Virus record (IMG/VR): IMGVR_UViG_3300023293_000016
Span: 1-51,861 of that record
Direction: 5' to 3' (one strand)
Source of the DNA: a virus
Lineage: Duplodnaviria; Caudoviricetes
Length of the DNA stretch: 51,861 nucleotides
Shown here: one piece after another, positions 3,923 to 36,045 of the stretch
Numbering within the stretch: the first letter of the stretch is position 1
Layout of the letters: the number at the start of each line of letters is the position of its first letter
Translations under genes and position numbers: made by a program
Notes under the pieces: model-generated
Seen by the model: only the letters and a program-made list of their open reading frames with translations
Told to the model about the DNA's origin: nothing
Database searches by the model: none

Positions 3923-4108
3923 TTAATCGCATACATCTTCTTTATTTTCTTCAATTGGTACGTGGCCCGCGGTCCGCGCTTCTTTATACCAGTCGAAGAC
4001 CAGTCGGAGTTGTCCGCCGATGGTTCTGCCCTCTGCTTTAGACAGGTATTTAATTTCTTCGTACACTTCCCGCGGTACAAGTACGCTTTTCCAACGTGTG
4101 GTATCCAT
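3923..4108 (-). CDS. Ribbon-helix-helix-like DNA-binding protein (61 aa)
   Basis: WKSVLVPREVYEEIKYLSKAEGRTIGGQLR fits a beta-alpha-alpha RHH pattern; GGAG Shine-Dalgarno before ATG at 4108. Confidence 0.7.
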   Translation of the reverse strand: MDTTRWKSVLVPREVYEEIKYLSKAEGRTIGGQLRLVFDWYKEARTAGHVPIEENKEDVCD

Positions 4109-4113
4109 TTTTT

Positions 4114-4170
4114 TTGCTCCAAGTCCCGCTTCATCTAGGATATTATAGGAGTATATGCAAGAATGCAAGA
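4114..4170. promoter_or_regulatory. Overlapping divergent promoters for the RHH gene and the ATP-grasp gene
   Basis: Minus strand TATAAT at 4142-4147; plus strand TTGCTC-N16-TAGGAT (4114-4141). Confidence 0.45.
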
Positions 4171-4185
4171 AAAAGAGGGTTTACT

Positions 4186-4935
4186 ATGGATTATGTGTTG
4201 TTTGGACAGATGGACGATCCTAACATTGCGGCGCTGCGCCCGCATTTTGATTTATTTCTGGATCAGGCGAGTGATTATACGTGGGACATAAATACAAACA
4301 CCCTTGTTTGTAACGATGAGCGCGTTAAGATGCGCGGTTTTTTTGGCAGGGCCAATGTGTTTACAAAGAACACGCATCAACGTTTCAACAATTGGCATCT
4401 TATGGCGAATTACTTGGACGCTAACTCGCATGTGTCTCGTTATAACAGGCGTTATAACCATGGCACACCTATCAAAGCTTCTAACTTGCGTCGGGCCGTG
4501 GCCGCGGGCCTTGAGATACCGCGCACGATTATTGGCAAGGGGCCTTTGGAGGGCGATTGCATATTTAAGCCGTTGACGGGCGGGGCGCATTGCATGTCCG
4601 GCAATCAAACGAGTTGGACGGGTATTATTCAAAACCGTATGCCGGGGGTTAATCGTCGGTTATTTTTGGTCGGGGATCAGCACTTTGGCTTTAAGTTAGA
4701 GACGACGGCTTTGGATTACCGTGACGATCCGCACGTTGTTGTGACCAAAGAGGTGTTTGCGCAAGATATTGCGCACAAAGTACGGTCCGTGGCCCACGGT
4801 CTAGGTTTAACCTTTTGTGCAGCCGATTTTATGGACGACGTGTTTCTGGAAATAAACAGCGGACCGATGTTTGCGGCGTTTGATCGTGTTGTTGATGGTG
4901 CGCTTGCGAGTGCTATTCGCTCGGAGTTGGCATAA
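4186..4935 (+). CDS. ATP-grasp ligase (RimK / graspetide synthetase-like), 249 aa
   Basis: K..NL..A...GLEIPRT, IFKPLTGG, IIQ..MPG...RLFLVG, LDYR, GLTFCAADF and FLEINSGP motifs; GAGGG Shine-Dalgarno before ATG at 4186. Confidence 0.85.
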   Translation: MDYVLFGQMDDPNIAALRPHFDLFLDQASDYTWDINTNTLVCNDERVKMRGFFGRANVFTKNTHQRFNNWHLMANYLDANSHVSRYNRRYNHGTPIKASNLRRAVAAGLEIPRTIIGKGPLEGDCIFKPLTGGAHCMSGNQTSWTGIIQNRMPGVNRRLFLVGDQHFGFKLETTALDYRDDPHVVVTKEVFAQDIAHKVRSVAHGLGLTFCAADFMDDVFLEINSGPMFAAFDRVVDGALASAIRSELA

Positions 4936-4966
4936 AAAAACCCCCAACCTTTGCGGGCTGGGGGGA
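4934..4966. terminator. Terminator between the convergent ATP-grasp and polA genes
   Basis: A-run then CCCCCA...TGGGGG stem. Confidence 0.55.
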
Positions 4967-5005
4967 AGTTGACAAGTGAGAGGTATGTCGAGCAGTAAAG
5001 GTAGT

Positions 5006-6901
5006 TCACATGGACTCGCCCCATGATGGTCCCATTTCAATGTCACATTTACTCGGGACTTCAAGTGGTAGTACATTCTCCATTATTCTAGCAATTTCTT
5101 GGGCCTCGTCAACATCTTTAACGGACATTGCTATTTCATCGTGGATTTGGATGAGCGGCAGCTTGCCTATCTTGTAGAGAGCCACCATTGCCTTCTTTGT
5201 CATGTCGGCAGCCGACGCTTGGATCAATCTGTTCAGGGCTTTGTACGTGTAAGCCCTCTTCAGGCGTGTGGTAGGCCCGTAGGCGTCCACAGCGTCCTTG
5301 TAAGACATGGCTTTGTTCATTGCGAACGTATCCGGCTCCCACATTTCAAAGCGGCACTTACGGCCTCCCAGTGAGCGTATAGCGCCCGCCGAAGATTTCT
5401 CGTTCAGCCGGTTCATGACGCCGGTCATCAGTCCTTTAACGAACGGGACGCGCTCGTGGTATTGTTTGACCAGTTTTTTGGCCTCTTCAACAGAGATGTC
5501 CAAGCTTTCGGCCATCTTATTCACGCCCATGCCATACATCAGACCAAGGTTGATGGTCTTTGCTTGCTTACGCGGGATGTTTGTCATCTCGGCAACCATG
5601 GTGTGGAAGTCAGTTGAGGGGTCGGTGTTGTACGCTTCGACAAAATCGGCCGCCCCTTCCAGCGGAATGCCGCGTGTTTTGCCATATACATGAGCGTAAT
5701 GGACCAAGATGCGCGGTTCTTGTTGCGAGTAGTCGATAGCCGCCCACTGGTCGCCTTCTTCTGGCAGGAACAAACTACGGATCATGGGACCAAGCTCTGG
5801 GTCGCGGGCCGGGATTTGTTGTAAATTAGGGTTGGACATTGATATGCGTCCCGAAACCGTTCCGCCATCATCTGACCGGATTTGGTTAATGTGCGAATGT
5901 ATGCGCCCATCGGATCGGCAGTGTTTTATTATTGTGTTGATGAACGTGCCCGACGTTTTGTTTAGGTTACGGGCTTCAACAACCAGCTTTGCCACGGGGT
6001 GCGGGTTTTCGTTCAGGAACTGTTTAGTAAACGACGGAGCGCCTTTTTCTGTTTTGGGGTATGATATGTCCAGCTTATCGAACGCTTTTGACAGCGATTG
6101 TGCGGCCCATATCTCCACATCCGTCCCCGTGATGCGTTTAACTTCCTTCATAACTTCTTTTTCGCGCTTCAGAAGCATGTCTCTGGTCCGTTCGACGCGG
6201 TTCACGTCTATTCGAACGCCGCGCATTGTCATATCGACAAGGCAGGGCAGGAGGTCGAGTTCTATGTTAGCAATGCTCCACAGGTCTTCTTTACCTAACA
6301 TTGTGGAAAAGTAATTCCAAAGCTCCAGTGTTAAGACGGCATCGACTTCGGCGTATGGCCCGACATACATTGCAGGCATCTTCCACATCTCGGCTTTTGG
6401 ATCGACGCCAAACTCCCGCGCTGCTTGCACGAGTGCTTTCTCGGACTTAGTTTTTCCAAGGTGTTCGTATGCCAGCGCGTTTAGGCTGTAGCTGAAACGG
6501 TTTTCGTCAAGCAGGGAGGCTACCAACATGGTATCGATGATGCGTCCGTTGACCGTGAAACCCATGCGTTTGATCCAGCCCAGATCGTATTGGGCGTTGT
6601 GCATGATTTTATCGGCAGGGCATTCGAATACTTTGCGCAGCCATTTGTTGACCTGTTTTTCGTCAAGATTACCGCCGCCAAGGTGTCGGATCGGAATGTA
6701 CCCTGACCAACCGTCTACGGCTACGGCATAACCCACGACTTCCCCGTCGCCTGTTGCCCAACCCGGACCATTCTTTTTCAGGTTCGGGTCGCGTGTTTCA
6801 ACGTCGATTGCAATTTTACCTGCGCCCGTAAGGTCTGGTAGTTCGATGGGCGGAACCCATTCACTTTTGGGGGCGAACATAGCCATTTGCAAATTTGCCA
6901 T
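5006..6901 (-). CDS. polA: Family A DNA polymerase with 3'-5' exonuclease
   Basis: ExoI DVET, HNAQYD, GRISMSNPNLQQIP, motif A DYSQQEPR, motif B RKQAKTINLGLMYG, motif C IHDE. Confidence 0.97.
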   Translation of the reverse strand: MANLQMAMFAPKSEWVPPIELPDLTGAGKIAIDVETRDPNLKKNGPGWATGDGEVVGYAVAVDGWSGYIPIRHLGGGNLDEKQVNKWLRKVFECPADKIMHNAQYDLGWIKRMGFTVNGRIIDTMLVASLLDENRFSYSLNALAYEHLGKTKSEKALVQAAREFGVDPKAEMWKMPAMYVGPYAEVDAVLTLELWNYFSTMLGKEDLWSIANIELDLLPCLVDMTMRGVRIDVNRVERTRDMLLKREKEVMKEVKRITGTDVEIWAAQSLSKAFDKLDISYPKTEKGAPSFTKQFLNENPHPVAKLVVEARNLNKTSGTFINTIIKHCRSDGRIHSHINQIRSDDGGTVSGRISMSNPNLQQIPARDPELGPMIRSLFLPEEGDQWAAIDYSQQEPRILVHYAHVYGKTRGIPLEGAADFVEAYNTDPSTDFHTMVAEMTNIPRKQAKTINLGLMYGMGVNKMAESLDISVEEAKKLVKQYHERVPFVKGLMTGVMNRLNEKSSAGAIRSLGGRKCRFEMWEPDTFAMNKAMSYKDAVDAYGPTTRLKRAYTYKALNRLIQASAADMTKKAMVALYKIGKLPLIQIHDEIAMSVKDVDEAQEIARIMENVLPLEVPSKCDIEMGPSWGESM

Positions 6902-7223
6902 TATCTTTTATTTCCTCAATAATTTCATCTACAGGGCGTTTGTCTCTTTCGACAAACTCTGACCCGAGGGCCGTGTACCCTGCTTTATCGATCCACGAAT
7001 CCTGATGGTCGATTGTTTCGATTAACCGGCTGGTTTTTACCCAGTCCATCATCAGGGCAATGTGAGCCGGGGTTAAGTACCCGTGGCTGTTGATTGCCCC
7101 CCGCATGATGACGTTCCATCCTTCCGCGATACGAGCATGATTATCGTAAGCATCACCATAATCTTTTGCCCGGTCCCCGTTAATCAGGGATTTTGCTGCA
7201 TCCAGCACTTCGTCTCGTTTCAT
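6861..7223 (-). CDS. DUF6378-like phage protein
   Basis: INGDRAKDYGD...NHARIA...W...K.SR...DSWIDKAGY pattern. Confidence 0.75.
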   Translation of the reverse strand: MKRDEVLDAAKSLINGDRAKDYGDAYDNHARIAEGWNVIMRGAINSHGYLTPAHIALMMDWVKTSRLIETIDHQDSWIDKAGYTALGSEFVERDKRPVDEIIEEIKDNGKFANGYVRPQK

Positions 7224-7396
7224 TTATCGCCCCTCATCCATTTAATGTCTGCCAGCAACGCCGATTTTTCTTTTGTTGCGGCCTCTAATGCTTGTGTGAT
7301 CCGCGCTATTTCACTGCGCTGCACGGCAATTTTAGATTGCAGGTTACTAATAGCTTTTTCCTGCGAGTTTTTCCCATCGATCACCCATTTAGCCAT
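7220..7396 (-). CDS. Small coiled-coil hypothetical protein (58 aa)
   Basis: Read by hand (MAKWVIDGKNSQEK...); TAATG and ATGA overlaps with both neighbours. Confidence 0.65.
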   Translation of the reverse strand: MAKWVIDGKNSQEKAISNLQSKIAVQRSEIARITQALEAATKEKSALLADIKWMRGDK

Positions 7397-7614
7397 TAGT
7401 GTTCCACCTGATTAACGTAGCCGCAGAACACCAGTTCTTTAAGTTCTTCATCAAACTCGAACTTTGCGGCGGGTTGCGCCAGATCAGATTTGTTTGGGTC
7501 GTTCCACATTTTTTTAGCGCGAGCTTCACTAAAGTCTACTACGCCCATTTTTTTATATTCAGCGCGTTTTGCTATTTCTTGCGCCTTCCAGTCGTCCCAT
7601 GTCATTTTCTTCAT
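7396..7614 (-). CDS. Hypothetical protein
   Basis: ORF track; translational coupling with neighbours. Confidence 0.65.
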   Translation of the reverse strand: MKKMTWDDWKAQEIAKRAEYKKMGVVDFSEARAKKMWNDPNKSDLAQPAAKFEFDEELKELVFCGYVNQVEH

Positions 7615-7955
7615 GTCTTCTCTCCCTTAAACAATTTACTTTCCCACTGGCACACTTCGTTAATGTGCGTGTGCCGTGTGGTAGGACGCACCATCCCAAC
7701 CTTTTCAACCCATCCCAACTTTCGCAGGGATGTCATCATCGCGCCCCAAACGTTGTGGTGATGTGGGTCAGACATACCCTGCGCTCTGCAAAAGGCACAA
7801 ATCTTACCACCTTCTACGAAATTGTGTTCCGACAGGTATTTTGCCGCATTTTGGTAATAGGCTTGTTTCCACTCGTCGTCTGCGTGGACATAAGCGCGGT
7901 CTATTTCAGCCTCAATAAATTCAAACCGCTGTTGTTCAGAGAGGGCTTCGGTCAT
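7611..7955 (-). CDS. Hypothetical phage protein (PHHHNVWGA motif)
   Basis: ORF track; ATGA overlaps; AGGAG Shine-Dalgarno. Confidence 0.7.
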   Translation of the reverse strand: MTEALSEQQRFEFIEAEIDRAYVHADDEWKQAYYQNAAKYLSEHNFVEGGKICAFCRAQGMSDPHHHNVWGAMMTSLRKLGWVEKVGMVRPTTRHTHINEVCQWESKLFKGEKT

Positions 7956-9469
7956 AGGTCATAACTCCTTGTCGCGTCTTCTGGTTCAACAATATACAGG
8001 TTCTGTCGGGTTCGCGTGACCCCAACGTAGAACACTCGGTGCATATCATCTGGGTTAATCCGCATTGCATTGTCCGCAGCCGCACTTAGGTCCGTGAACA
8101 GTACAACGTTATCCGCTTCACCACCCTTTGATCCGTGGATCGTGGACGCTGTGATGCGGGGAATGCCATTAAACTTCTCGCCGCGCCGCAGCATTGCAGT
8201 GATATAAGCCCTGTCAATTTCGGGCAGCTTATCCATGGCCTCTGACCATATCATTGTGCCGTCGATTAGCAGCCCATGGTTAACCATCAAGTCTTGTATG
8301 TTAACCATTTCTTTGTCGTTGAGCCCGGGTATCTTTTTGTACCCGCGTGTAATGCGTGTTCCGGTAGACATGTAGCTGAAAATCTTGCGAGCCACGTCTC
8401 CAGATATCTCTTTTCCCTTGCGCATCTGCTCCCAGCCGTTGACCGCCTCAGATATCTTTTCGCTGATGGACCGGTGGCCGCGGTAGGTAAATAGGTGACC
8501 GTTTGATTTCAGGTCACTTGCTACGGGCTGTAGTTGATATCCTGCTTGGGACAGAATTAGCCAAGAGCCCTCGGCCATGTCCAAAGAGCTTATATGGCTT
8601 ATGCGCTGCACCTTACCGCGCTCGGGTTTTGGTTCATAGCGTTTGGGAAACCTCCGCGTGATGCGGCGCACGACATTCTCTGCTAAGTTATGAACGCTCT
8701 GGGGCACACGGTATGACTGAGATAGCGTCTCTGATCCACCGGGCAGGTTTATGAAGTGATCCACATCTGCTCCCGCCCATCGGTAAATGGCTTGATCGTC
8801 ATCCCCTGCGCAATACATCCGCTTGGAGCTATCGTCTAAGATATGAGCAATATCCCATTGCAGCGGGCTTAAATCCTGCGCTTCGTCTAGGAAGCACAAG
8901 TCAAATTCAGGTCGGAACGTATTTTTTCCAGAAACAAACTGATCTAACATGTCCGTAAAATCGTATAACCCTAAACCCTTTTTGTATTCGCGCAGGCATT
9001 TGTCCACGTAATTCACAGTATTCCAGTCGTCGTCCAGATTGCTCTGGTTATATTGTTCCCGAAGGTCTACTTTGCGCAACCTTGCCAAGTTAATCAGACC
9101 CAGCACCGGATCGTTGCTCGACACTACCGACGGCATGTCGTCGTCAAAGCTGGTGTTTTTTGCTCCACCTAGCGATATTCCAATCTTCTGGCCAAGCTCT
9201 CTAAAGTTAGCTTCCTGCATAACTTGCTCTGGACGGATGTCGGTCATGGTTAGGGCAAGCGAGTGCAACGTCCGGAAGTAAATCAGGTCTTTCTTGGCGT
9301 CCAGCCCGAAGCGTTCCGCAGCGCGTTCCTTGGCCTCGTTAGCCGCTTTACGTGTAAAGGCTAGGAAAGCAATACGGTGGGGGTGTGTGCCCGCAGCCAG
9401 AGCCTCGTCCACCATGTTCAACAGCGTGGTCGTTTTGCCTGTGCCGGGAGGTCCAAATATCCTAAACAT
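7952..9469 (-). CDS. UvrD/Rep-like SF1 helicase
   Basis: GPPGTGKTT, FTRKAA, DEAQD, GDDDQAIY, STIHGSKGGEAD and YVGVTR motifs; start moved to 9469. Confidence 0.95.
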   Translation of the reverse strand: MFRIFGPPGTGKTTTLLNMVDEALAAGTHPHRIAFLAFTRKAANEAKERAAERFGLDAKKDLIYFRTLHSLALTMTDIRPEQVMQEANFRELGQKIGISLGGAKNTSFDDDMPSVVSSNDPVLGLINLARLRKVDLREQYNQSNLDDDWNTVNYVDKCLREYKKGLGLYDFTDMLDQFVSGKNTFRPEFDLCFLDEAQDLSPLQWDIAHILDDSSKRMYCAGDDDQAIYRWAGADVDHFINLPGGSETLSQSYRVPQSVHNLAENVVRRITRRFPKRYEPKPERGKVQRISHISSLDMAEGSWLILSQAGYQLQPVASDLKSNGHLFTYRGHRSISEKISEAVNGWEQMRKGKEISGDVARKIFSYMSTGTRITRGYKKIPGLNDKEMVNIQDLMVNHGLLIDGTMIWSEAMDKLPEIDRAYITAMLRRGEKFNGIPRITASTIHGSKGGEADNVVLFTDLSAAADNAMRINPDDMHRVFYVGVTRTRQNLYIVEPEDATRSYDL

Positions 9470-9614
9470 CTTTAGACGTTTCACGTTTGTATATTTGTTG
9501 GACGCGCTGTTTTGAGATGCCGAACCACTTGGCAACCGCCGTCATGGTGACGCGCTGTTCATCGATGAGGCGCACAATCTCTGCATTACGCATAGCTTTT
9601 AAAACGTTCGTCAT
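9462..9614 (-). CDS. Small HTH protein, sigma70 region 4-like (50 aa)
   Basis: Read by hand: RNAEIVRL...TMTAVAKWFGISKQRVQQI. Confidence 0.7.
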   Translation of the reverse strand: MTNVLKAMRNAEIVRLIDEQRVTMTAVAKWFGISKQRVQQIYKRETSKDV

Positions 9615-11152
9615 TAGAACGGAGCCTCTTCTTGTGACCCAAACTGTGGCGGATCAATGTTGATATCCACATTGTCGAAAGATGGTATCTGCCAAACACG
9701 GACGGCACGGCCCTTAATCTTCATCACAAGGCTACTGCCGTTGATGTCCCGTAGGCGCTGGGCGATGCGGTGCGATTTATATTCGAAGAACTTATTCTTC
9801 TTCAGGAAGTTTTCGAAGTCTTTGAGCCGGAAGTACGTGATGTTCATCTCGTCATCGGTCCAAGGCTTGCGCAACAGGATTTCTTCTTTGTCCTGTGCCA
9901 CCTGTAGGTGGGCGCAAAACTCCTCCAAATAATCGTAGAACTGTCCGCTTATACTTGCGTCCTGTGCCACTTCGATGATGGCGCTTTCGTTATCCTTCAT
10001 TTCGCTCAACAAGGTGCTGATGCGGCCTTCCCATTGGGGCTTGGCAACTGAGCGCGGCATGAAGTTAAGCTGCTCCATACATGCTTTTTGGAACGTCATC
10101 TGGTTCATCAGGGCGTCAGTGTCCATTTCTAGCGGCTCGCCGTTAACGTCCATAAACCACACTGGTGGAGTAGAGTTATACTTTCGGAGGTTCGCGATTG
10201 TAGCCCCTGCTACCGCGGCTCCTATGCCGAACTTACGTGTCCGACATAGGTCTTTGTTGCAGTGCGAATTGATCGGGGAGTCAGAACATTTGTACGCGTA
10301 ATCTTTTCGCTCTACTTGTTTGGCAACAACGTTTACCTCTGAGAGTGGCAGTGGCGGAGATATGTACTCCATGTTGAAGCGCAGTATTTCGGACTCCCAG
10401 CTATCTGGGTACGCTTTCCGTAAGTAAACGCCGATGTTAAATAAACCATTGTTACGTCCTCCTTCGCTGATGCCTGATTTGCACAGGATTTGTAGACAGG
10501 GCGGACCGTCCTTGAGTAGGTTGGTTTCGCCGCCACCCACTACTTGTAGCTTAACAATTTGTTCAGGCGTTTGAACATGTTTTTCGTATAATTCAATAAA
10601 TTCTTCTAACGTCGCAGACGTGCCGTCATCTAAGAAGCCGTAGCGCAGACCGTCTTCATGGTCGTAGTACGGCAGATTAAGGAAGTTACCTACATCACCA
10701 CGGTCAAGGTGTAGCCTTATCTGCTTTGGGAATATTTCGCTTTCGCCATATCCGAGGGCCGCGGCTATCGATTGCAGGGCCTTCTGCATATCTTTGGCGT
10801 CTGTCCAATCGCTTGCGAACAAGAAGCAGTGCGCTCCGCCTGATTTAGAGCGGCACACTACCATTGGTATTTTTAGTTTACGGATTTTATTGACAAGAAC
10901 TTTGTGGTCTAGCGGGTACTGATCGATATCAATACACCCCCACTTACAGCAATTGTCTTCGTTAATCGGTATGATGCCTAGTCCTGCACCTTTGCCAGAG
11001 AGGTGGTTGTCCCACAACTTCTGGTCCCGCGGTTCCCGTAGGATGCCCGCTTTGCCTTTGGCTTTGCCACCGGCACCTGTGTTCTCAATTTTAAAGTAGC
11101 CGTAGGCCTCTTTTAAACCATCAAAGATGGCCATAAATTTATCTGCTGACAT
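9614..11152 (-). CDS. AEP-type primase with PriCT-like domain
   Basis: WGCIDID, RSKSGGAH, GNFLNLPY, PPCL...EGGRNNGLF motifs. Confidence 0.85.
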   Translation of the reverse strand: MSADKFMAIFDGLKEAYGYFKIENTGAGGKAKGKAGILREPRDQKLWDNHLSGKGAGLGIIPINEDNCCKWGCIDIDQYPLDHKVLVNKIRKLKIPMVVCRSKSGGAHCFLFASDWTDAKDMQKALQSIAAALGYGESEIFPKQIRLHLDRGDVGNFLNLPYYDHEDGLRYGFLDDGTSATLEEFIELYEKHVQTPEQIVKLQVVGGGETNLLKDGPPCLQILCKSGISEGGRNNGLFNIGVYLRKAYPDSWESEILRFNMEYISPPLPLSEVNVVAKQVERKDYAYKCSDSPINSHCNKDLCRTRKFGIGAAVAGATIANLRKYNSTPPVWFMDVNGEPLEMDTDALMNQMTFQKACMEQLNFMPRSVAKPQWEGRISTLLSEMKDNESAIIEVAQDASISGQFYDYLEEFCAHLQVAQDKEEILLRKPWTDDEMNITYFRLKDFENFLKKNKFFEYKSHRIAQRLRDINGSSLVMKIKGRAVRVWQIPSFDNVDINIDPPQFGSQEEAPF

Positions 11153-11171
11153 TATTGCCCCCGCCCGAAAG

Positions 11172-11200
11172 AAAAACGGCGGGGCACAATTACCCCGCCG
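11172..11200 (-). terminator. Rho-independent terminator
   Basis: CGGCGGGG...CCCCGCCG stem followed by a T-run on the minus strand. Confidence 0.7.
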
Positions 11201-11210
11201 CGAACACTAC

Positions 11211-11993
11211 TTAAAACGGTATATCGTTCGAAGTTTGTGTTGCTTCATCGTCCGAGTGTTTCACAACAACCTCACCAGCGTTAATGCTTGCTGCAAATTC
11301 TTTAGCGCGTGTATACATGTGTGCTTCGGACACGGGGCCCGCTACAGACATTTCCCACCCGTGCCATGACCCCTTGGAGTTTTCTTCTCCAATTGTTTTC
11401 AAGTCATAGACGTAGGCAAACCGCGGTGGTGTGAAGGGTCCTTTCGATCCCATCATTGAACGTGACGCCATGATGCTGTTCCACTTACGCGACTTTTTAA
11501 GCTGCGTAGATTTCATAGCAATTAGGGCTGTTTCCATTGAGCCGTCTTCCGAGAGCAAGACAACAAAGTGCTGGTGCGTTTCTTCGATGTATTCACCAGA
11601 GCCGTCCATTACATAGTCTTTGTTATCCTCCTTGGAGCGTTGCACCTCTGGGCGCTTGTCCGCGGGGGTGTAGATCGCGGTTGGCGCACCGCTCCCAACG
11701 CCCCGTGGAGCCCACTGGATGAACCTGCGCTGATACGCGCACGGGATGACCTGAATACCTGTCTTGCCCTTGTAGAGGGCTCCTGTGACGGTATTATAGA
11801 TGTCCCCCTTGCGGGCATCCTCATTAACGTCCAGTACCGGATCATTTCCAGACAGAACTTTTAGAAATGGCAGGGCAAGGTCTTCTTGACCCAAATCCTG
11901 TAATCCATTACCGGCGTCTTCTTCGAACATCGCAGGGTTAAACTCCACGATTTCCGCTGTTTCTTTTTTTGCAACTTCTTTTGACTGTGCCAT
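11211..11993 (-). CDS. Putative single-stranded DNA-binding protein
   Basis: Replication-module position, acidic tail ending in NDIPF, DLALPFLK motif; GAGG Shine-Dalgarno before 11993. Confidence 0.6.
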   Translation of the reverse strand: MAQSKEVAKKETAEIVEFNPAMFEEDAGNGLQDLGQEDLALPFLKVLSGNDPVLDVNEDARKGDIYNTVTGALYKGKTGIQVIPCAYQRRFIQWAPRGVGSGAPTAIYTPADKRPEVQRSKEDNKDYVMDGSGEYIEETHQHFVVLLSEDGSMETALIAMKSTQLKKSRKWNSIMASRSMMGSKGPFTPPRFAYVYDLKTIGEENSKGSWHGWEMSVAGPVSEAHMYTRAKEFAASINAGEVVVKHSDDEATQTSNDIPF

Positions 11994-11994
11994 A

Positions 11995-12576
11995 TTATTT
12001 ACCTCTCTTAATGACTGCGCGTTGACCAACATAAGCTCCGAATAATTCCATCGGAAACTCTTCTCCTGCCTCGCACCTTTCTTTCACAAACGCCCGTAGG
12101 GTCTGCGGGTGAATTTCGGTTTTCTGCGTAGGCACAAAACCTTCTTGTTCAGCAAAAGCTGAAAAAGCGTTGGCTTTATCGTCCTCGCCACGGCCGAACT
12201 GGCATAAGACAGTATTTTTAATAATGTCATCGTACCCGTTATCCCGTAGCCAGTCGTAGGCTTGCGGACGATTGTTTACCAGTATGGAGGCTCCATACGT
12301 TTGTTTGACCTGAACGGTAGAACCGTCATCCAAGGCAAACGAAGATATGCCTATTTCTGCAAGCATCGCAGGCATGTCTTCATCCGTGAACTTCAAAAGC
12401 TCTTTCTTCAAACTCTTGGCTAATTGCTCAAGGTTTTCAATCTGTGCTTCATGGTCACGGATTCTTCTGGCCAACTCCGCCACCGTTTGGAGGCCTTGTT
12501 GATCTATCTTTTCGACAGAAGAGGCGATAGTGTCCTCAAAATCTTCTTCCATCATTTTTAGTACGTCGTCACTCAT
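11995..12576 (-). CDS. Conserved replication-module protein of unknown function
   Basis: Coiled coil, then WLRDNGYDDIIK and IHPQTLRAFVKE motifs. Confidence 0.75.
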   Translation of the reverse strand: MSDDVLKMMEEDFEDTIASSVEKIDQQGLQTVAELARRIRDHEAQIENLEQLAKSLKKELLKFTDEDMPAMLAEIGISSFALDDGSTVQVKQTYGASILVNNRPQAYDWLRDNGYDDIIKNTVLCQFGRGEDDKANAFSAFAEQEGFVPTQKTEIHPQTLRAFVKERCEAGEEFPMELFGAYVGQRAVIKRGK

Positions 12577-12614
12577 TCCGAGTCTCCTTCGTGGTTAAAG
12601 GCACCTATCGGGCC

Positions 12615-12655
12615 TTGACAATTACAGATAATATCTTATACTCTGCACTTGTCAA
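12615..12655. promoter_or_regulatory. Overlapping divergent sigma70 promoters
   Basis: Plus: TTGACA(12615)-N16-TATACT; minus: TTGACA(12655)-N16-TATTAT; lies between divergent genes. Confidence 0.75.
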
Positions 12656-12676
12656 GCAGTTTTTAAGGAAAATAAA

Positions 12677-14125
12677 ATGCGTGGATTTGATTACAAGACC
12701 AATCCGTATGACCACCAGAGAAAAGCGTTAGAAGCTTCGTGGGCCGAGGAGTATTATGCACTGTTTATGGAGATGGGAACAGGTAAAACCAAAGTTGCTA
12801 TTGATACCATGGCGGTTCTTTACGAGGCTGGCAAGATCAATGCGGCTTTAGTCGTTGCGCCCAAAGGGGTTTATGACAACTGGGTCCAGAACGAAATCCC
12901 CGCGCATTTACCGGACCGGATCGAACGAACCTTGCTGCGTTGGACCCCCGCTAAGACAAAACGTATGGAAATAAACTTGAAAGACTTTATTGTCGGGGAC
13001 CTTAACGGCATTAAAATATTTGTCATAAACATAGAGGCGTTCTCTACGTCTCGGGGTACAGATGCGGCAACGGCCTTCCTGTACCAAAATCCCAACAATA
13101 TTGTGATAGTGGACGAAAGCACCACCATCAAAAACCGCAAAGCCGCGCGGACAAAAAACATTGTTAAGTTGCAAGAGTATTCAAAGTACCGCCGCATCCT
13201 GACAGGCTCCCCTATTACTAAGAGCCCCATGGATTTGTTCAGCCAATGCGATTTTCTTAAGAACAAGGCGCTGGGGTTTAACAGCTACTTTGCTTTTCAA
13301 GCGAGATACGCAAATATCCAGCAACGGACCATGGGGCACCGCAGTTTTCAACAGATCGTAGGATACCGCCGGTTAGACGAACTTTCGGAAAAGTTAGACA
13401 CTTTTAGCGACAGGGTTTTGAAACAGGATTGCTTAGACCTACCCGAAAAGGTTTATGTCCGTCGGAACATAGAGTTTACTCCCGAACAAAAGAAACTTTA
13501 TACGCAGATGAAGAAGCTGGCGTTAGCAAAGCTTGAAAGCGGGGAGCTTGCCACAACGGCCAGTGTCCTGACGCAGATCATGCGCCTGCAACAGATATGC
13601 TGCGGGTTTCTAAAACCCGACGATGGCGAAATAGAAACCATTCCAAGCAACCGTTTAAAAGAATTGTTGGAACTTTCTGACGAGGTTCAGGGCAAAGCTA
13701 TAATCTGGGCCACTTACACGCACGACATCTTGCGTATTGAGGAAGAGTTAAAGCTCCGGTTTGGACCGGACTCGGTAGCCACTTACTACGGCGGTACGCC
13801 ACAAGATCAACGCCAAGAGATCGTCACACGGTTTCAGGACAAGGCTGACCCCCTGCGGTTCTTTGTTGGTCAACCGCGAACCGGTGGTTACGGCATTACC
13901 TTGACGGCTGCCAACACCGTGATTTACTTTTCTAATAGTTACGATCTGGAGATTAGGTTGCAATCCGAGGACCGCGCACACCGGATCGGGCAGACAAACA
14001 AGGTAACTTATATTGATATGGTTTCGCCCGACACCATCGACGAAAAGATATTGCAGGCGTTGCGCAGTAAAATTGATATTGCGGGGCAGGTTTTAGGTGA
14101 AGACGCAAAGGACTGGTTGAAATAA
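12677..14125 (+). CDS. SNF2-family SF2 helicase
   Basis: MGTGKT, DEST, LTGSP, GGYGITLT and QSEDRAHRIGQ motifs. Confidence 0.95.
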   Translation: MRGFDYKTNPYDHQRKALEASWAEEYYALFMEMGTGKTKVAIDTMAVLYEAGKINAALVVAPKGVYDNWVQNEIPAHLPDRIERTLLRWTPAKTKRMEINLKDFIVGDLNGIKIFVINIEAFSTSRGTDAATAFLYQNPNNIVIVDESTTIKNRKAARTKNIVKLQEYSKYRRILTGSPITKSPMDLFSQCDFLKNKALGFNSYFAFQARYANIQQRTMGHRSFQQIVGYRRLDELSEKLDTFSDRVLKQDCLDLPEKVYVRRNIEFTPEQKKLYTQMKKLALAKLESGELATTASVLTQIMRLQQICCGFLKPDDGEIETIPSNRLKELLELSDEVQGKAIIWATYTHDILRIEEELKLRFGPDSVATYYGGTPQDQRQEIVTRFQDKADPLRFFVGQPRTGGYGITLTAANTVIYFSNSYDLEIRLQSEDRAHRIGQTNKVTYIDMVSPDTIDEKILQALRSKIDIAGQVLGEDAKDWLK

Positions 14126-14271
14126 TGACTAAACAAGAACAAATATTAACAACCCTCGAAAACAGGCTGTCAGGCCTTCTTGCGGAGACTGAAAACCGCA
14201 ACCGGCTAGGCCTCAAGCAAAAGCTTGAGGAAATCCGTAGTCTGCTAGAAATGCTGAAGGCTAGTTTATAG
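14125..14271 (+). CDS. Small coiled-coil protein (48 aa)
   Basis: Read by hand (MTKQEQILTTLENRL...); TAATG coupling to the helicase. Confidence 0.55.
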   Translation: MTKQEQILTTLENRLSGLLAETENRNRLGLKQKLEEIRSLLEMLKASL

Positions 14272-15915
14272 CCTGAAGTTACCCTGTGGGTCGGGTCCGC
14301 GGAGCGGGGGTGGTCCAGAAACTTCCCCGCCGCTTGCAAACGCGCTAGGCATCGGTTGCTCGTAGTCATACGCGGCGTATTGTTTAAACATTTGACCAAT
14401 CCCTGTTTCTTGCGGCGGTTCTGGTCTAGCTTGGGGACGAATAAGAGGGGCAGCGGTTGCTTGCGCAACTTCGGGCTCTTGGTTCATCATCAAATATTCA
14501 CTGACCTGTTGCGGCGTAGGGGTATAACCCGGTTGCCCAATTCCTTCTGGACGCGCTCGTGGTTTTGGGGCCGGGTCTTCACCTTCGGCCATTTGAAAGA
14601 ATCCGTCCATAGCAGGCATTATTTCGCCTTCGGCGGCACCGTGGATTATAGAAACGTACTTTCGGGTTTCGTCAAAGGGCGGAACTCCGCCATACTTCCT
14701 TACATTTCCCGGGCCTGCATTATATGCGGCAAGGGCCAAGGGCACCGTACCAAAGTCCTGTAGCTGTTGCTTGAGGTATTTAATACCGCCAATCACGTTT
14801 TGTTTTGGATCGTTAGGGTCCACACCTAGTTCTTTGGCGGTTCCGGGCATAAGCTGCATAAGGCCAATGGCCCCTTTTTGGCTTACGGGGCCCTGACGGC
14901 CTCTGTTTTCTTGATATATGACGCGCAAAACTAGCTCGGGATCAACGTTTTGTTCGAGGGCTAATTCCATGGGATCAAACCCGTAGTCTTCCATTATTTT
15001 CGTTCTTACCGCGGTAAGTTGTTCCGGGGTAGCCGGGCCTTGTACCGCGCCGCCCTCCGCAAAGAGTTGGGCAGAAATCTCGGGCCCGCCGCCCATCAAA
15101 TTCGTTAGATTATTGCCGCCGCCACCGTCTTCGCCCATGGCTTGGGTAGTAGCTAAGAAACCCCCGCCGAAATCGTTAAAACCTCCGCCACCGTCTTCAC
15201 CCATGGCCATAGTGCTTGCCGAAAGGCCAAAAAAGCCGCCACTGCCGTCTTCGCCTATTGCACGGGTCATACCGCCCATAGCGCCCATAGGTGACCTTTC
15301 GGGGCTCTCAAACTGTTTCAGGCTGTCGAGGTGCATTTGTCCGCCGCCAAAACCAAAGCTTTCTTCCGCCCCAAAATGAGCGCGTTCAGCCTCGTCCACC
15401 ATGCCAACAAAGTGGCCCACATCGCCATCGATGCTGTTTTGGACGTTCTCCATAGCTTTCTGACCGTAAGTGCCCATCAAGTATTCTTGGTAGTTTTTGA
15501 GAGGAGAGCCGCGCAAGTCGGCCATTTGGCTGCCGAACTGGTTTGGCATCGGGCCGCCGGACTGTCGTTGGCTGAAAGCCTGCTCTTGAAAAAGACCGCC
15601 AATACCGCTCATATCGGGTTGTTTAGCCACAGACATGGCTGGTTGCAAACTGGCGGCATACGGGGAAGCTATTGCACCACCCTGCGCGTAATTTTGTACC
15701 ATACCACCATCTCCAAATCCCATGGCCGTGGAGCTTAGTCCTGCATTCCCGGCTAAATTAATATCTCCAGCTTGGAACCCGGCAGAGCCTGCCCCGTCCC
15801 GAACCAACTGCTCTCCAGCACCACTTCCAAAAGGCGCCCGACGTGTTTCCAATAACAGCTTGTGCTGTAGCACTGGCCGCCCCACGACGTTGTGCGCGGG
15901 CTTGGGACTCTTCAA
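14266..15915 (-). CDS. Virion/ejection protein with lytic transglycosylase (SLT) domain; C-terminal part of a frameshifted gene
   Basis: VIYQE...SQKGAIGLMQLMPGTA...ALAAYNAGPG...ETRKYV; three T-x-A-x-GEDG repeats; the first ~28 codons are probably not real. Confidence 0.85.
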   Translation of the reverse strand: MKSPKPAHNVVGRPVLQHKLLLETRRAPFGSGAGEQLVRDGAGSAGFQAGDINLAGNAGLSSTAMGFGDGGMVQNYAQGGAIASPYAASLQPAMSVAKQPDMSGIGGLFQEQAFSQRQSGGPMPNQFGSQMADLRGSPLKNYQEYLMGTYGQKAMENVQNSIDGDVGHFVGMVDEAERAHFGAEESFGFGGGQMHLDSLKQFESPERSPMGAMGGMTRAIGEDGSGGFFGLSASTMAMGEDGGGGFNDFGGGFLATTQAMGEDGGGGNNLTNLMGGGPEISAQLFAEGGAVQGPATPEQLTAVRTKIMEDYGFDPMELALEQNVDPELVLRVIYQENRGRQGPVSQKGAIGLMQLMPGTAKELGVDPNDPKQNVIGGIKYLKQQLQDFGTVPLALAAYNAGPGNVRKYGGVPPFDETRKYVSIIHGAAEGEIMPAMDGFFQMAEGEDPAPKPRARPEGIGQPGYTPTPQQVSEYLMMNQEPEVAQATAAPLIRPQARPEPPQETGIGQMFKQYAAYDYEQPMPSAFASGGEVSGPPPLRGPDPQGNFRL

Positions 15916-16312
15916 TAAAAACGTCTACGTCATCGCCTGAAAAACCGGGGTCGTCAGGTGCGACAGGAGCCGACCCGCCTTCAAAAACAGGTGCGGTACT
16001 CGTAAAGTTTCCCGGAGACTTTACCGTACCAGACCAACTCTCATACGGTGTTGTTCTGTCCGTAGCATTCCATTTTTCGATGGCCGCGTTATAAGTTTCG
16101 CGGTCCTGTTGCCATTGAGCAAGGTTCGCGTTCCACGGTTCGATCTGGTTGGTGTTAAAGTCATCCACCAGCTTTTGGTAATCGCCAGCTTGTGTTTTAT
16201 ACTGCCCCAAAGCGGTGTTGTAGATACCGATCCGGTTATCATAATCCTCCATGATCTTTTTGTCAGTGTCGTAGTAACGATAATCAGGAGACGCATAATT
16301 TACAATTGACAT
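15758..16312 (-). CDS. N-terminal part of the SLT virion protein, joined to 14266-15915 by a +1 shift near 15829-15832
   Basis: Starts right after the upstream gene; composition changes abruptly after GNTSGAF, while the +1 frame continues GSGAGEQ. Confidence 0.7.
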   Translation of the reverse strand: MSIVNYASPDYRYYDTDKKIMEDYDNRIGIYNTALGQYKTQAGDYQKLVDDFNTNQIEPWNANLAQWQQDRETYNAAIEKWNATDRTTPYESWSGTVKSPGNFTSTAPVFEGGSAPVAPDDPGFSGDDVDVFIEESQARAQRRGAASATAQAVIGNTSGAFWKWCWRAVGSGRGRLCRVPSWRY

Positions 16313-16313
16313 G

Positions 16314-19300
16314 TTAACCCCCTAAACTTCCAATCCCACTTTTCATCAACTGCGTTGTTGAGTCATTTGGGAACATTGCAGCGTACCTAGTCCTGTCAAC
16401 CGGTCCAGAAGATTGTACAGGTGCCACTTGGGGTGGCGCAGCGGCCTGTTGGACAGGACTAGGCTGAGTAACCGCACCGGGTAAGGCGGGAGGTCCCTCC
16501 GGTGCGGTATTCAATGACCCTTCTTGGTCTGAAGGGGGTAAGGGTCTTTGTGGTTCAGACGGAACAGTAAATTTTTCTGTTTCTTCGTCTGTTTCACGAA
16601 TTATTGAAGGAGGGCTTCTTCGTATCGGAGAGAAGCCTAAATCTTTAAGCATGTTTCCGACGCGCTCGGCGAGACGAACACGTTCTTTGTCATTACGCGG
16701 TTTGCGCATCATAGCTGCCAAAAGTGTTGGGTTAGCCATCAATTCGGACATAACGTCCGTCTGTAATGCCGCCGGAATGTCGTTAAATATACGACGCATT
16801 GTTTCGGCACCTTGACCCGCAGCGATAAGAGCGCCGGGGCCACTTTGACCGCCAGTAAACATGCGTTGTGCGCGAGTACCAATTGCAGAACCTGTAATGC
16901 CTAAGTAAAAATCAAACAAAGGTCCCGCACGATCCACCAGTTCCCCGATATCACCCGCTTTTTCCGAAGCTTCAAACCGAACCATTTCAGACAAATAGGT
17001 CTTTAGGTTGGAAAGTTCTGCTTCGTTCATTACTTTGTTTTCCTTCATCCAGTCCACTAACGATACGCGGCCTCTGGAGCCCTTTATAGGACGAAACATG
17101 TCATCATATAGGGTGCTTGGGCTAAAGGTCCCCGAGTGGCTGCCACCCGCCTTTGTCGCGGCCCATTCTAAAATGGAAGACTTCAAACCGGTCATGGCTT
17201 GTTCCCGCGCGTCTTCGGGGGCGTTTGTAACAACGCTTAAAAGTCGGTCCAACCCTTGGATCGGGGCTCTTGTGTTAATAGCTCGTGCAATGGCCGTTGT
17301 CGGGCTTTCTGTTCCATACACCCTACGGCCTGTATCACTCATCACAGGGTTCATGAGGTCATAAAAGCTTAATTGAGCCAACTCTTCCGCTTGGTTCTTT
17401 CGATTAATCTCAGAAGACTCTCTTAGAAGAACGTTTGCACTTTCGGCATTTTGTAAATCAAACTGTAACCCGGGAAATTGGTCAAGCACGTCTTTGTTTT
17501 TAGCAACCCACTTAGCCAAAGCATCGGGGTTTACCTCACCAGTATTGGGATCAAAAGCCTCTGACCGCGCATTCCGAAGGATTTGCTCCGTAACGCCGCG
17601 CAACGTTCCTATGGTTGTTTCCGCATCAGCCAAGCCTTCTTCTACCGCAAACATCCCGATTTCGTTAATTTGTTCAAGACGCAGATAGGTTGGATCATTT
17701 CCGCCCTGAAGGATGCGACGAGCCAGTAACTCTGGTCCCATGCTCGCGGCTCCCGAGCCTTTTGTTTTTGTGGCTTCGCCCGCAAAAGCCCGAGTGAACG
17801 TGTCATTAAGAGAGCGCGAATACGAACGAGCCATGTCATACGAGAACCGGTAATCATTTGCCTCCGGTCCCAACGATGCGCCACCTAGATCGTCTAACAT
17901 GGCACTGGCCATTTCATTAGCAATCCTAGCGGAGTTATAATCAGGGTTTTCCCCGGAGGAAAAACGACGTGAATAGTTTAAGGCAATGCCGCGCAGTTCC
18001 GTTAGTTCTTTTGTTGTTAACGGATCGGTTATTACCCCGGTTCCGTCGGCCGCGGGTTGGTTACCCTGCATGACCATTAAATCAGCGGTCTTGTCTAGCG
18101 CATCCGCCAACTGACGTGTTCTAGGGGTAGACATGCGGCCGCGAGAAGAGCTTGCTTCTTGACGCAACCTTGTCAAAATATCTTGTTGTGTTGCGCCTTC
18201 GTTAGTCATCGCATCGACGATGCTACTTACACGGTTTTCATAGCTTGTACCCGCCAGCTTTGTAACGGCGTCGGTTGCCCGTCTTTGAGCCGTGACCAAC
18301 TCTCCGGAAGCCGGTGCAGGCGCACCTAATCCCAACTCGTTTGTTTTACGATCAACAAATTGTTGAAGTAAAGGCATGTCGTCGGCAAGCTTACCTTGAA
18401 GCTCGGGAGAAACGCCCCTTACACTGTTCCATTTTGTTATGAAACTGGGAGTGTTAGTCGCTTCCCCCGCAGCGTTTGAAAAAGAAGTTATGTCGATTTC
18501 AGGGACAGAACCCCACAGTATTTTTTCTTTGCTTCGGGCTTGGCCTAACTGGTTTGTAATAACGTCAAAAAGTCTTTCAGAAAGCTGGATGTTGCTAGTT
18601 CCGTCTCTCGAAACAGTTTCGAAAGCTTTCAGTACGTTATCTGTGGCAAATGCCATGCGTTCATTTAGCTGTGCGCTAAACACGCCTTCGGCCAAATCCG
18701 CAGCCGTTTGAAGGGCGTCTTGGTCCCCTGTTTGGGACATTGCTAGAATTACGTTTCGCAAAGCTTTGATAGAGGCCTTAGAACCGGCGGTTCTTTCCGC
18801 GGACAGACCGCTGCCAAGCTGCTCTAAAGAGGCTTCAATAGCCAGCAAAGCAGGTGATCCGCCTTTTGCCCCCGCAGTTAGCATAATAGGTTTGCCGTCT
18901 TCGCCAACCAACAATTCGCCTAAATCGTCTCCGGCCAAACGTTGGATTACGGCTTCTACGTCTTCGCCTTCTGCTTCCAAGATATCCACGATCCGCTCAA
19001 CCGCTTTTCTTTGACGAGCGGATTTAAGCGGGGACAAAACCGCGCTTGCGCCGCCTTGTTCGTAGGTCTGTTTTACGCGACGCAATGCCGGTAGAATTTG
19101 ATCGTAATTGTTTAGAACAGGCGCTAGAGGACTGGAGGCAACAGTCGTTCCGACACCCCCCACTGTTTCGAAGAAGATGCGGGCTAACGGATCACCTTGG
19201 AAATACGTTTCTGCTACACTTGCTCCGCCCACTTGACCAACACCCGAAATGGCTTCTGCGGCAAGAAAAGGAGCAGGTGCTGCGCGGGCCGCGGACCCTG

Positions 19301-27709: not shown

Positions 27710-28002
27710 GAGATTGTCACCGTTACTGTCCCGACAGAGCCTGTCGCTTGTGATCCCCTAACATAGGGGGAATAAATTAAAGGAACCCGAAGTTGGCCCC
27801 CGTGTTCAAATACCGCACCGGGCTCCAGCCCGCTGTCGTCCGATTGAAGAGCCGTGAAAACGGTAAACGTGTTCCGACCCTCTCCCGCGTTTTGCATGTT
27901 TTGCATGTAAACAGAATAAGACCGCAAAACCTCCGCAAAGTAGGACTGGTCATAGTCCTGCGGCGGAATAGGAAAATAAGGTAGGTTTAAATTCCTAGAC
28001 AC
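27706..28002 (-). CDS. Hypothetical tail-region protein
   Basis: ORF track; coupled to both neighbours. Confidence 0.7.
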   Translation of the reverse strand: MSRNLNLPYFPIPPQDYDQSYFAEVLRSYSVYMQNMQNAGEGRNTFTVFTALQSDDSGLEPGAVFEHGGQLRVPLIYSPYVRGSQATGSVGTVTVTIS

Positions 28003-30116: not shown

Positions 30117-30173
30117 CAGCAATCTCCAGTTAGGGGGATTATACACAAAAGGTAAGTTTACACCAGTGTTAGG

Positions 30174-35900: not shown

Positions 35901-36045
35901 CGCCAGCAAGTGCAATAGACACCTGACCGTCGAGCGCGGTATCTACCAGTTCAAAGTTTGTGTTAGTGGTCTCGCCCCATGTACCGGACTGTTCGCCAGT
36001 GCCGATGAGTTCGATCCCGTTATTCAGGGTGTATGTACTAGGCAT
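32995..36045 (-). CDS. Tail fibre with C-terminal S74 intramolecular chaperone
   Basis: GEQSGTWG anchor, LDVDGTTNLD repeats, GNVGIGT repeats, SSDYRLK...GFIAHE...KLVPLL. Confidence 0.9.
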   Translation of the reverse strand: MPSTYTLNNGIELIGTGEQSGTWGETTNTNFELVDTALDGQVSIALAGAGNSGSPNNLPVSDGSASNGRNRMITFTDGTDLGATAYVQLTPNDSEKIIYVRNSLSGSRSIILFQGTYNASNDYEVPAGTTAVVYFDGAGAGAVAANVFNNAHFDALNVVGNVTVGGDVTVTGTVDAGTVEFDNLSGTGAVSVTNILDEDNMASDSATALSTQQSIKAYVDAQVGSFDTLAEVLAQGNTTGGTDIVVSVDDVISMDNGTNLLPSLTTTGDLNTGLYFPAADEVGLTVAGTQRLNVNATGVDITGTVTATGTSVFASLDISGDIDVDGTTNLDIVDIDGAVNMATTALVTGVLTTTAAQVATGGITSGSNIVSDTDSTDDLGTTSVRWANLFVDGVTATDQITATGFTGTLDGILGSGAAATASVTTLDTSGAVNLNLTTDSTSSTSGALIVDGGVGIAKKLFVGTDLDVDGTTNLDAVDIDGAVDMATTLAVAGNVDFNGDLDVDGTTNLDVVDIDGAVNMATTALVTGVLTTTAAAVFNGGFATAGVGTFADGSASTPSITNTGDLNTGVWFPAADTVAASTGGTERMRIQNNGDISFYEDTGSTPRLFWDASAESLGIGTTSPRALLHLQPSGGASDDFNALISQFRPNIVLEDFSSSATDWQFFLDNNDLQFRYGDASTDTKLVNEAMRIDSAGNVGIGTNSPTEKLDVVGDVILSDTGTTSTDTRKLSVHSNGYAVLDLNGDRDNTVGEPGGAGITFGVDGTDDNAVISFVNAAGEDGVGGTYTGTTPNDMLIGTTADAPIQFGINGAVAATLDTGGNLLVGDPSDTFPSNNTSGSGISIRSDGRYSSVVGEAAALNVGRHTSTGPVAQFYYAGNIVGSISVTGSATAYNESSDYRLKKDVIPMSGATERVMALKPVNFAWIVDDSRVDGFIAHEAQAVVPECATGTKDAMRDEEYEVTPATETDEAVMGTRSVPDMQGIDKSKLVPLLTAALQEALTTIGLMEARLTALEAV
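34442..35076. repeat. ~98-bp near-identical direct repeat inside the tail fibre (34442-34539 and 34979-35076)
   Basis: Two mismatches by eye; encodes VDGTTNLDxVDIDGAVNMATTALVTGVLTTTAA. Confidence 0.85.

Follow-up and report, generated by a model that had tools for sequence, protein, structure and literature searches.

A shortened graspetide-type ATP-grasp ligase and candidate plesiocin-like cores within a lytic transglycosylase protein of a metagenomic tailed phage

Graspetide chemistry has so far been described as a bacterial route to small protease inhibitors, the class of compound to which all characterised graspetides belong (PMC8939145). The closest described system is that of plesiocin, with the ATP-grasp ligase PsnB and the short, released precursor PsnA2, where the core TTxxxxEE contains Gly36-Glu37-Glu38, the first ring joins Glu37 and Thr32, and Glu38 is part of the second ring (bioRxiv 10.1101/2021.03.09.434688). 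The microviridin systems with MdnB, MdnC and AMdnB are bacterial and leader-dependent and lead to small-peptide products with another core motif and ring topology; AMdnB can process the several cores of a single polypeptide, AMdnA (PMC5934393). RimK, the ribosomal protein S6 glutamate ligase, likewise has the ATP-grasp fold and acts on a whole protein, but it adds residues and forms no rings. On the phage side, podoviruses have muralytic internal virion proteins (T7 gp16 type), large proteins that contain a lytic transglycosylase domain and are encoded last in the structural operon, and we know of no enzymatic side-chain cross-links described for them. Here we analyse a stretch of viral DNA of 51,861 bp (IMG/VR record IMGVR_UViG_3300023293_000016, Caudoviricetes, estimated completeness 91%; called the window in the following), which encodes an ATP-grasp ligase and, at a distance, a protein with an SLT-type lytic transglycosylase domain and three plesiocin-like core motifs (Table 1). 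From sequence comparison and structure prediction we consider it probable that this minimal phage graspetide synthetase cross-links the cores in a linker of the SLT protein.

In common with the plesiocin system, the cores have the form Thr(-Thr)-x3-Gly-Glu-Glu/Asp and occur in tandem, PsnB is the closest solved relative of the ligase by profile and is among its top fold matches, and the equivalent of PsnB Arg213 and the D-aromatic-R loop are kept. In contrast to it, the ligase is phage-encoded, has only 249 amino acids, is about 20 residues shorter along the stretch aligning with the leader-contact residues of PsnB and is not encoded next to its putative substrate, which is a multi-domain protein of about 679 amino acids that combines a coiled N-terminal part with an SLT domain. 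The microviridin ligases also match the phage family by profile and fold, whereas RimK is a much weaker match. The similarity of the SLT protein to the T7 gp16-type proteins lies in the SLT part. The chemistry class is known; new are the phage host, the minimal ligase and the kind of substrate.

Among 1.84 billion representatives, 296 homologs of the ligase reach E ≤ 0.001, and eight of these reach ≤ 1e-30. As a single sequence it matched no Pfam family, even at E 10, and no PHROG, and the best hit of a single-sequence search against the PDB, PsnB at E 0.27, was not usable; its identity as an ATP-grasp enzyme is therefore based on the comparison of profiles and folds. A profile built from 19 homologs retrieved PsnB (3.8e-25), AMdnB (3.3e-18), the PruB-like 9bou (2.9e-17), MdnB (1.3e-16), CdnC (1.4e-12) and MdnC (2.4e-12) from the PDB, followed by RimK at 0.019. 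In a Foldseek search with the AlphaFold2 model, which has a predicted local distance difference test score (pLDDT) of 96.8, ranks 1–27 were all graspetide ligases (query-normalised template modelling scores 0.64–0.78), with PruB, PsnB, AMdnB, MdnC/B and CdnC as top matches, and RimK appeared from rank 28 on. NCBIfam TIGR04187 ('ATP-grasp ribosomal peptide maturase') is matched by all 19 family members; the window ligase does so with E 6.6e-8 and 32 bits against a curated cut-off of 350, and with a score so far under the cut-off it therefore belongs to a divergent subfamily. By profile and predicted fold the ligase is of the graspetide type and not of the RimK type, and within the explanation that we favour, and hold as a whole to have a good chance of being right, it would be a phage-borne, shortened plesiocin-type (group 2) graspetide synthetase.

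The residues D11, R55, K97, G108, K128, R158, D177, R179, D214, E222, N224, P227 and M228 are invariant in 73 ligase homologs. Aligned to PsnB, R158 pairs with the Arg in 'DDVRVY', and the 'DFR' loop corresponds to D177-Y178-R179. An offset by a 20-residue tag brings all eight PsnB residues named in the preprint into agreement with the letters of the PDB chain, which identifies the aligned positions as Arg213 and the D(F/W)R loop; the core-binding Arg and the D-aromatic-R loop are both aligned and invariant or nearly so, with Tyr as the aromatic residue. Leader contacts of PsnB are Tyr171, Arg181, Arg192, Ile193, Leu196, Val201 and Phe203 (bioRxiv 10.1101/2021.03.09.434688). According to the alignment, six of these seven are lost or replaced in the phage ligase and only the Tyr is conservatively kept, as Phe. 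A leader motif common to phage and bacterial substrates was not seen by eye in front of the first core, and several bacterial precursors start nearly at the first core. The N-terminal segment MAxFKxFKP...KIA..MGY was considered as a ligase-specific leader and ruled out, as it is also found in the ligase-less phage HMO-2011.

All three window cores share one reading frame with the SLT domain, and Gly-rich sequence follows each of them. The pattern TxAxGE[DE] occurs three times in the six-frame translation of the window compared with a mean of 0.08 and a maximum of 2 in 200 mononucleotide shuffles, and beyond the three SLT cores the window holds no further such motif. Shuffling the residues of the 549-amino-acid open reading frame (ORF) 20,000 times gave at least one motif in 38 cases and three motifs in none. 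PHROG matches of this ORF are a lytic tail protein, an endolysin and an internal virion protein with endolysin domain. A first-pass annotation of the window, made from the sequence alone, had already pointed out the ligase ORF with its LDYR motif (L176-R179) and the three motifs with the Gly-rich sequence behind them, all of which we could confirm. The SLT protein has its PF01464 domain in the same ORF as the cores, and in the record its gene is split by an extra base into two overlapping ORFs; the plesiocin-like cores are repeats of xTxAxGED far above chance, but none of the three is a strict TTxxxxEE; and the ligase and SLT genes are far apart, at a distance of about 9.3 kb.

Close relatives of the SLT protein were limited to five with the single ORF as query, and an alignment query extended the set to 68 loci. 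The gene is intact in all five close relatives (677–682 amino acids). The extra base is missing in contigs of the public runs X15 and X17 and present in those of X16 and X1, the last of which is possibly the source of the record; both forms thus exist in public data, which means either a polymorphism or a recurrent assembly difference. For the intact relative of 679 amino acids a long N-terminal helix (residues 12–82) and a folded SLT domain (about 430–560) are predicted, and its cores (337–381) fall beside the SLT domain into a stretch with pLDDT < 50 and without secondary structure; as this model is poor (mean pLDDT 53.8), it was used only for the split into ordered and disordered parts. The window cores are accordingly predicted to sit in a disordered linker just N-terminal of the SLT domain. 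A complex prediction with the ligase alignment and residues 205–270 of the SLT ORF scored 0.01 against a mark of 0.32, was run without controls and counts neither way. Each of the five close homologs has two or three cores, though the linkers between the cores differ. In the family of the N-terminal part of the SLT protein (120 homologs) 53 members are without a core, 34 contain a single one and 33 contain two to four, and in different lineages the cores occupy two different linkers of the protein. The cores thus behave as insertable modules. A further motif of the SLT ORF and its relatives is [DEQ]-G-G-x-[VI], found three or four times per protein (GDGGMV, AQGGAI, AEGGAV, ASGGEV then GPPPLRGPDPQG) with G202, G203 and V205 invariant in 22 homologs; it is also present in HMO-2011-type partner proteins (MAKGGMIRKMQTGG).

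To see the ligase and the cores in a wider context we looked at the best 80 of 197 bacterial loci with a relative of the ligase (27–38% identity to the phage ligase). In 78 of these 80, one or more xTxAxGE[DE] cores are encoded by an ORF on the strand of the ligase gene, and this ORF is upstream of the ligase gene in all but one locus (L190). Almost every bacterial core reads TTxAxGEE, a single ORF holds up to 13 strict cores, and the whole ligase family is therefore plesiocin-like. The bacterial substrates range from about 40 to about 600 amino acids; some have signals resembling those for twin-arginine translocation (Tat) and several have almost no leader. Substrates of 200–400 amino acids that carry Tat-like RRDFLR signals and contain as many as 13 strict cores are found in Planctomycetota (L146–L149, L158, L160, L165, L166, L182, L185, L187, L192, L207, L213), and those of Thiothrix have a conserved N-terminal domain ahead of the cores. 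Because of these large core proteins, embedded cores are not confined to phages.

More distant phages show the same association. Among 19 viral loci with a ligase 39–46% identical to that of the window, 16 have an ORF with one to seven cores that begins about 10–40 nucleotides past the ligase stop codon; two have a 644-amino-acid ORF (in L027 with one variant core, KTLMIGED) and one ends too early. The ligase-adjacent core proteins have 355–1061 amino acids and match no Pfam or PHROG family. In the clade of the window, 15 loci (L002–L016) have no cores adjoining the ligase. We also performed the reverse scan and searched 2.9 million viral contigs for DNA able to encode TTxAxGEEG, where 80 of 87 stretches were read: a ligase is present in all eight loci with at least two cores in one frame and in none of the 72 loci with a single match. 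The complete genomes G001 and G002 have almost no other gene in common with the window, and ligase and cores therefore move together as a module. One ligase-adjacent substrate, that of L023 (10772–12238; also in L024), has 488 amino acids, six cores and a long Gly/Gln/Pro/Tyr-rich tail, and its stretch DVNQDGEISMGDV resembles by eye a loop of the calcium-binding or dockerin type; neither Pfam nor PHROGs gave a match for this protein.

Joint loss is seen among the syntenic relatives, for which 50 of the 68 SLT-family loci were compared (the 18 left out are mostly shorter contigs). G014, with a DNA polymerase 93% identical to that of the window, has kept both genes flanking the ligase, but the ligase is absent and the SLT homolog has no cores. 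The complete genome G028 (55.7 kb, terminal repeats) has neither ligase nor cores. In G020 a ligase remnant of about 75 amino acids is left at the syntenic site and the SLT homolog shows only a degenerate LSQALGEE, compared with two or three cores in its relatives. This remnant (L039 about 8260–8475; G020:C1:21477–21632) is bordered by the small flanking gene on one side and the DNA polymerase gene on the other and has kept N- and C-terminal pieces of the ligase, while the catalytic middle is gone. The ligase occurs in three of the six genomes with a completeness of at least 90%, namely the window with three cores, G002 with seven and G001 with one variant core, and G028, G049 and G053 have neither; a reversed control pattern gave three matches in 55 records.

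Joint gain can be followed in G002, which is syntenic with the cultured phage HMO-2011 around the gp25 homolog. Here the ligase is an insertion between the homologs of gp26 and gp25, the second of which also contains an inserted stretch with seven cores. Phage1322_25 of HMO-2011 and gp35 of Roseobacter phage CRP-1 are homologs of this core protein at the same position in the tail or structural module, but they have no cores, and no ligase was found in either genome by a search that recovered its positive control in four of four cases. A C-terminal module that starts with CWVAREVYG...W(Y/F).FR.WL is conserved in L028, L033, L034, L035 and phage1322_25 and absent in L030 and CRP-1 gp35. Taken together, comparative genomics strongly supports a link of enzyme and substrate between the ligase and the cores, because of their co-occurrence in bacteria and phages, the reverse scan, the joint absence and decay, and the comparison of G002 with HMO-2011. 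Both expectations of the first-pass annotation that bear on this point, a grouping of the ligase with graspetide synthetases and a shared occurrence of ligase and repeats in relatives, are borne out, the former by PDB profile, Foldseek and TIGR04187.

The phage cores (53 unique, defined as xTxxxGE[DE]) have Ala at position 4 in 47 cases, mostly Asp at position 8 and often no Thr at position 1, and 12 of them are [TS]TxxxGEE. Glu8 is present in 12 of 24 cores with Thr or Ser at position 1 and in none of the 29 others (Fisher p 1e-5, ignoring relatedness). At the level of sequence this pattern fits an outer T1–E8 ring around an inner T2–E7 ring as in plesiocin. Lys at position 1 occurs in 11 of the 53 cores and always together with Asp8 (KTxAxGED; loci L025, L026, L028 and L030–L034), for which a Lys1–Asp8 lactam beside a Thr–Glu lactone is conceivable.

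We reconstructed the phylogenetic tree of the ligases from 22 of 41 phage loci and 30 of 80 bacterial loci, with two more dropped for odd ORF length. One long branch separates bacteria from phages (100/100), except for L184, a long-branch artefact. The clade in which the ligase stands alone and to which the window belongs (8 rows, support 98/91) is nested among phage lineages with adjacent substrate. With a root on the bacterial side, adjacency would be ancestral and the split arrangement of the window derived.

According to our model the ligase, presumably a dimer like PsnB, would bind each exposed core and most likely phosphorylate Glu7 with ATP, and Thr2 would then attack the activated Glu7 to give a hairpin closed by a side-chain omega-ester (lactone). 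Cores with Thr or Ser at position 1 may in addition close an outer ring to position 8, so that up to five dehydrations (1+2+2) would be expected in the SLT protein of the window if Asp8 is accepted and three otherwise. The enzyme would act without a PsnA-type leader and recognise the core alone, as suggested by the shortened segment aligned with the leader-binding part of PsnB and by the varied, unrelated substrate proteins. The SLT protein would be a virion or ejected protein, and its stapled linker would reach the cell envelope along with the wall hydrolase; we regard this as most likely because the SLT gene ends the structural block and internal virion proteins of podoviruses variably host muralytic domains (PMC4819975). 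There, the cross-linked hairpins might protect the linker against proteases, or turn it into a protease inhibitor, while the wall is penetrated. It is a tentative and rather doubtful extension of this model that diverse uncultured aquatic (marine, salt-lake) phages use a minimal, leader-independent synthetase to staple structural or ejected proteins of their own and that the hairpins, possibly including Lys–Asp lactams, inhibit or shield against periplasmic or defence proteases.

The cores could also be cross-linked in a product that is neither part of the virion nor ejected, either a late soluble wall-degrading protein with a stapled linker or cores released at lysis as free plesiocin-like graspetides against proteases of competitors or grazers. 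This would agree with the small protease inhibitors known as characterised graspetides (PMC8939145) and with the substrates of L020 and L023, which are low-complexity proteins of 355–488 amino acids without a recognisable structural domain. We consider it unlikely in view of the position of the SLT gene, which comes after four ORFs of 610–1242 amino acids and closes the structural block, and of the G002/HMO-2011 homolog between tail-fibre genes and large structural-module ORFs; moreover, no dedicated leader protease or exporter gene turned up, though none was specifically searched for. Even less probable is that the SLT cores are unmodified leftovers of a mobile ligase-substrate cassette and that the ligase now acts on another phage or host protein. 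Such a history could account for the ligase standing apart from any core gene in L002–L016, for the departure of the window cores from TTxxxxEE and for G001, which retains the ligase with almost no core; but two or three copies are kept in all five close SLT homologs despite the differing linkers, the cores are gone or degenerate where the ligase is absent or decayed (G014, G028, G020), and the window offers no alternative TxAxGE[DE] site. That the ligase is a RimK/GshB-type amide ligase, which adds amino acids (e.g. Glu tails) and forms no side-chain rings, appears hardly credible to us. As a fold class RimK comes directly behind the graspetide ligases, six of 19 family members weakly match TIGR00768 (best E 6.6e-5) and one source labels a distant homolog as 'glutathione synthase/RimK-type ligase-like', but the profile E-values favour PsnB by about 23 orders of magnitude, the graspetide-specific Arg and D-aromatic-R loop are conserved and the bacterial relatives stand beside genes with mostly TTxAxGEE cores in the 78 loci mentioned above.

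Several points weigh against a stapling of the SLT linker by the phage ligase. The SLT gene is frameshifted in the record and in two of the four public runs compared, and it is separated from the ligase gene not only by distance but also by strand and functional module, so that co-expression is an assumption. None of the window cores has the strict TTxxxxEE, as all have Asp at position 8 and one lacks Thr1, and the bacterial cores KTQAVGEE, YTRALGEE and KTFAAGEE break the T1/E8 rule. The complete genome G001 has a ligase and only one variant core. The loop of the ligase reads DYR instead of the D(F/W)R given in the preprint, and the shortened stretch aligned with the leader-binding segment, together with the lack of a recognisable leader motif, could point to another mode of recognition or, in principle, to weak activity. 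Finally, the assignment of the SLT protein to the virion is inferred from gene order and from the analogy to other podoviruses.

Full-text literature searches brought up neither a graspetide system encoded by a phage nor cores located in virion proteins, and the main text of two large graspetide surveys does not mention phage, although their supplements may list phage-derived entries. A tblastn search of 50,697 GenBank phage records with the ligases of the window and of G002 gave no match, and the ligase-bearing phages are known from metagenomes alone. The pairing of ligase and cores has not yet been described for viruses. If our model is true, proteins of the phage structural module would receive an enzyme-installed covalent modification of a new kind for phage proteins, and, in the more doubtful extension given above, the chemistry of RiPPs (peptides made on the ribosome and modified after translation) would for the first time be part of a virion. 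A naturally minimal ligase of about 250 amino acids, maybe leader-free, that recognises an 8-residue tag inside unrelated proteins could also be useful for protein stapling. For genome mining the separation of ligase and substrate marks a gap, as cluster-based searches miss such systems.

Table 1: Features of the window discussed in the text.
Feature	Position	Strand	Basis or remark
81-amino-acid ORF beside ligase	3923-4168	-	homologs border the ligase position in relatives with and without ligase
Shortened graspetide-type ATP-grasp ligase, 249 amino acids, starts MDYVLFGQ	4186-4935	+	profile and fold comparison
Terminator-like hairpin (9 pairs, then T run) between ligase and DNA polymerase genes	4941-4964	-	consensus scan only
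Core-bearing SLT (lytic transglycosylase) protein gene, last of minus-strand structural block	14266-16312	-	gene order, Pfam, PHROGs
SLT gene, ORF of 549 amino acids	14266-15915	-	holds cores and SLT domain
SLT lytic transglycosylase domain, residues 319-413 of the 549-amino-acid ORF	14677-14961	-	PF01464, E 3.3e-22
Core 3, TTQAMGED	15127-15150	-	
Core 2, STMAMGED	15193-15216	-	
Core 1, MTRAIGED	15247-15270	-	Thr2 and Glu7 present, position 1 not Thr
SLT gene, ORF of N-terminal part	15758-16312	-	overlaps second ORF
Extra base splitting SLT gene	15834 (site 15833-15834)	-	pairwise DNA alignment with intact 679-amino-acid relative L224
Four large ORFs (610 / 889 / 978 / 1242 amino acids)	between structural genes and SLT gene	-	
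Virion structural protein	28002-30146	-	family scans, gene order
Fibre-like protein	32995-36045	-	family scans, gene order
Capsid	42081-42992	-	family scans, gene order
Portal	46603-49059	-	family scans, gene order
Terminase	50015-51478	-	family scans, gene order

Nearly all genes of the window are located on the minus strand, in the order terminase, portal, capsid, fibre-like protein, four large ORFs and SLT gene. The ligase ORF is among the few plus-strand genes and is convergent with the DNA polymerase gene, from which a strong terminator-like hairpin separates it. A terminator scan of the ligase region found seven sites compared with 2.1 expected, and a promoter scan gave three sites compared with 2.2 expected, which is at chance level. 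Homologs of the small 81-amino-acid ORF are found immediately 5' of the ligase in L023 and also in G014, G020 and G028. A megablast search of the region 4000–16400 against GenBank phages gave no match. The stretch was found in public runs labelled salt lake and marine metagenome (24 runs, 14 of them possibly the source of the record itself); two RNA runs contain only a small share of its words (0.10–0.12), which is not evidence of expression. The SLT gene is followed by a replication block with Pam3 gp33/gp34-like proteins, an archaeo-eukaryotic primase (AEP), a UvrD-type helicase and a family A DNA polymerase. At 11211–12576 and 9614–11152 this block encodes the Pam3 gp34-like and gp33-like proteins (PF23977, PF23984) and the AEP-type primase, which matches the primase domain of TOTE conflict systems (PF22548, E 2.5e-12).

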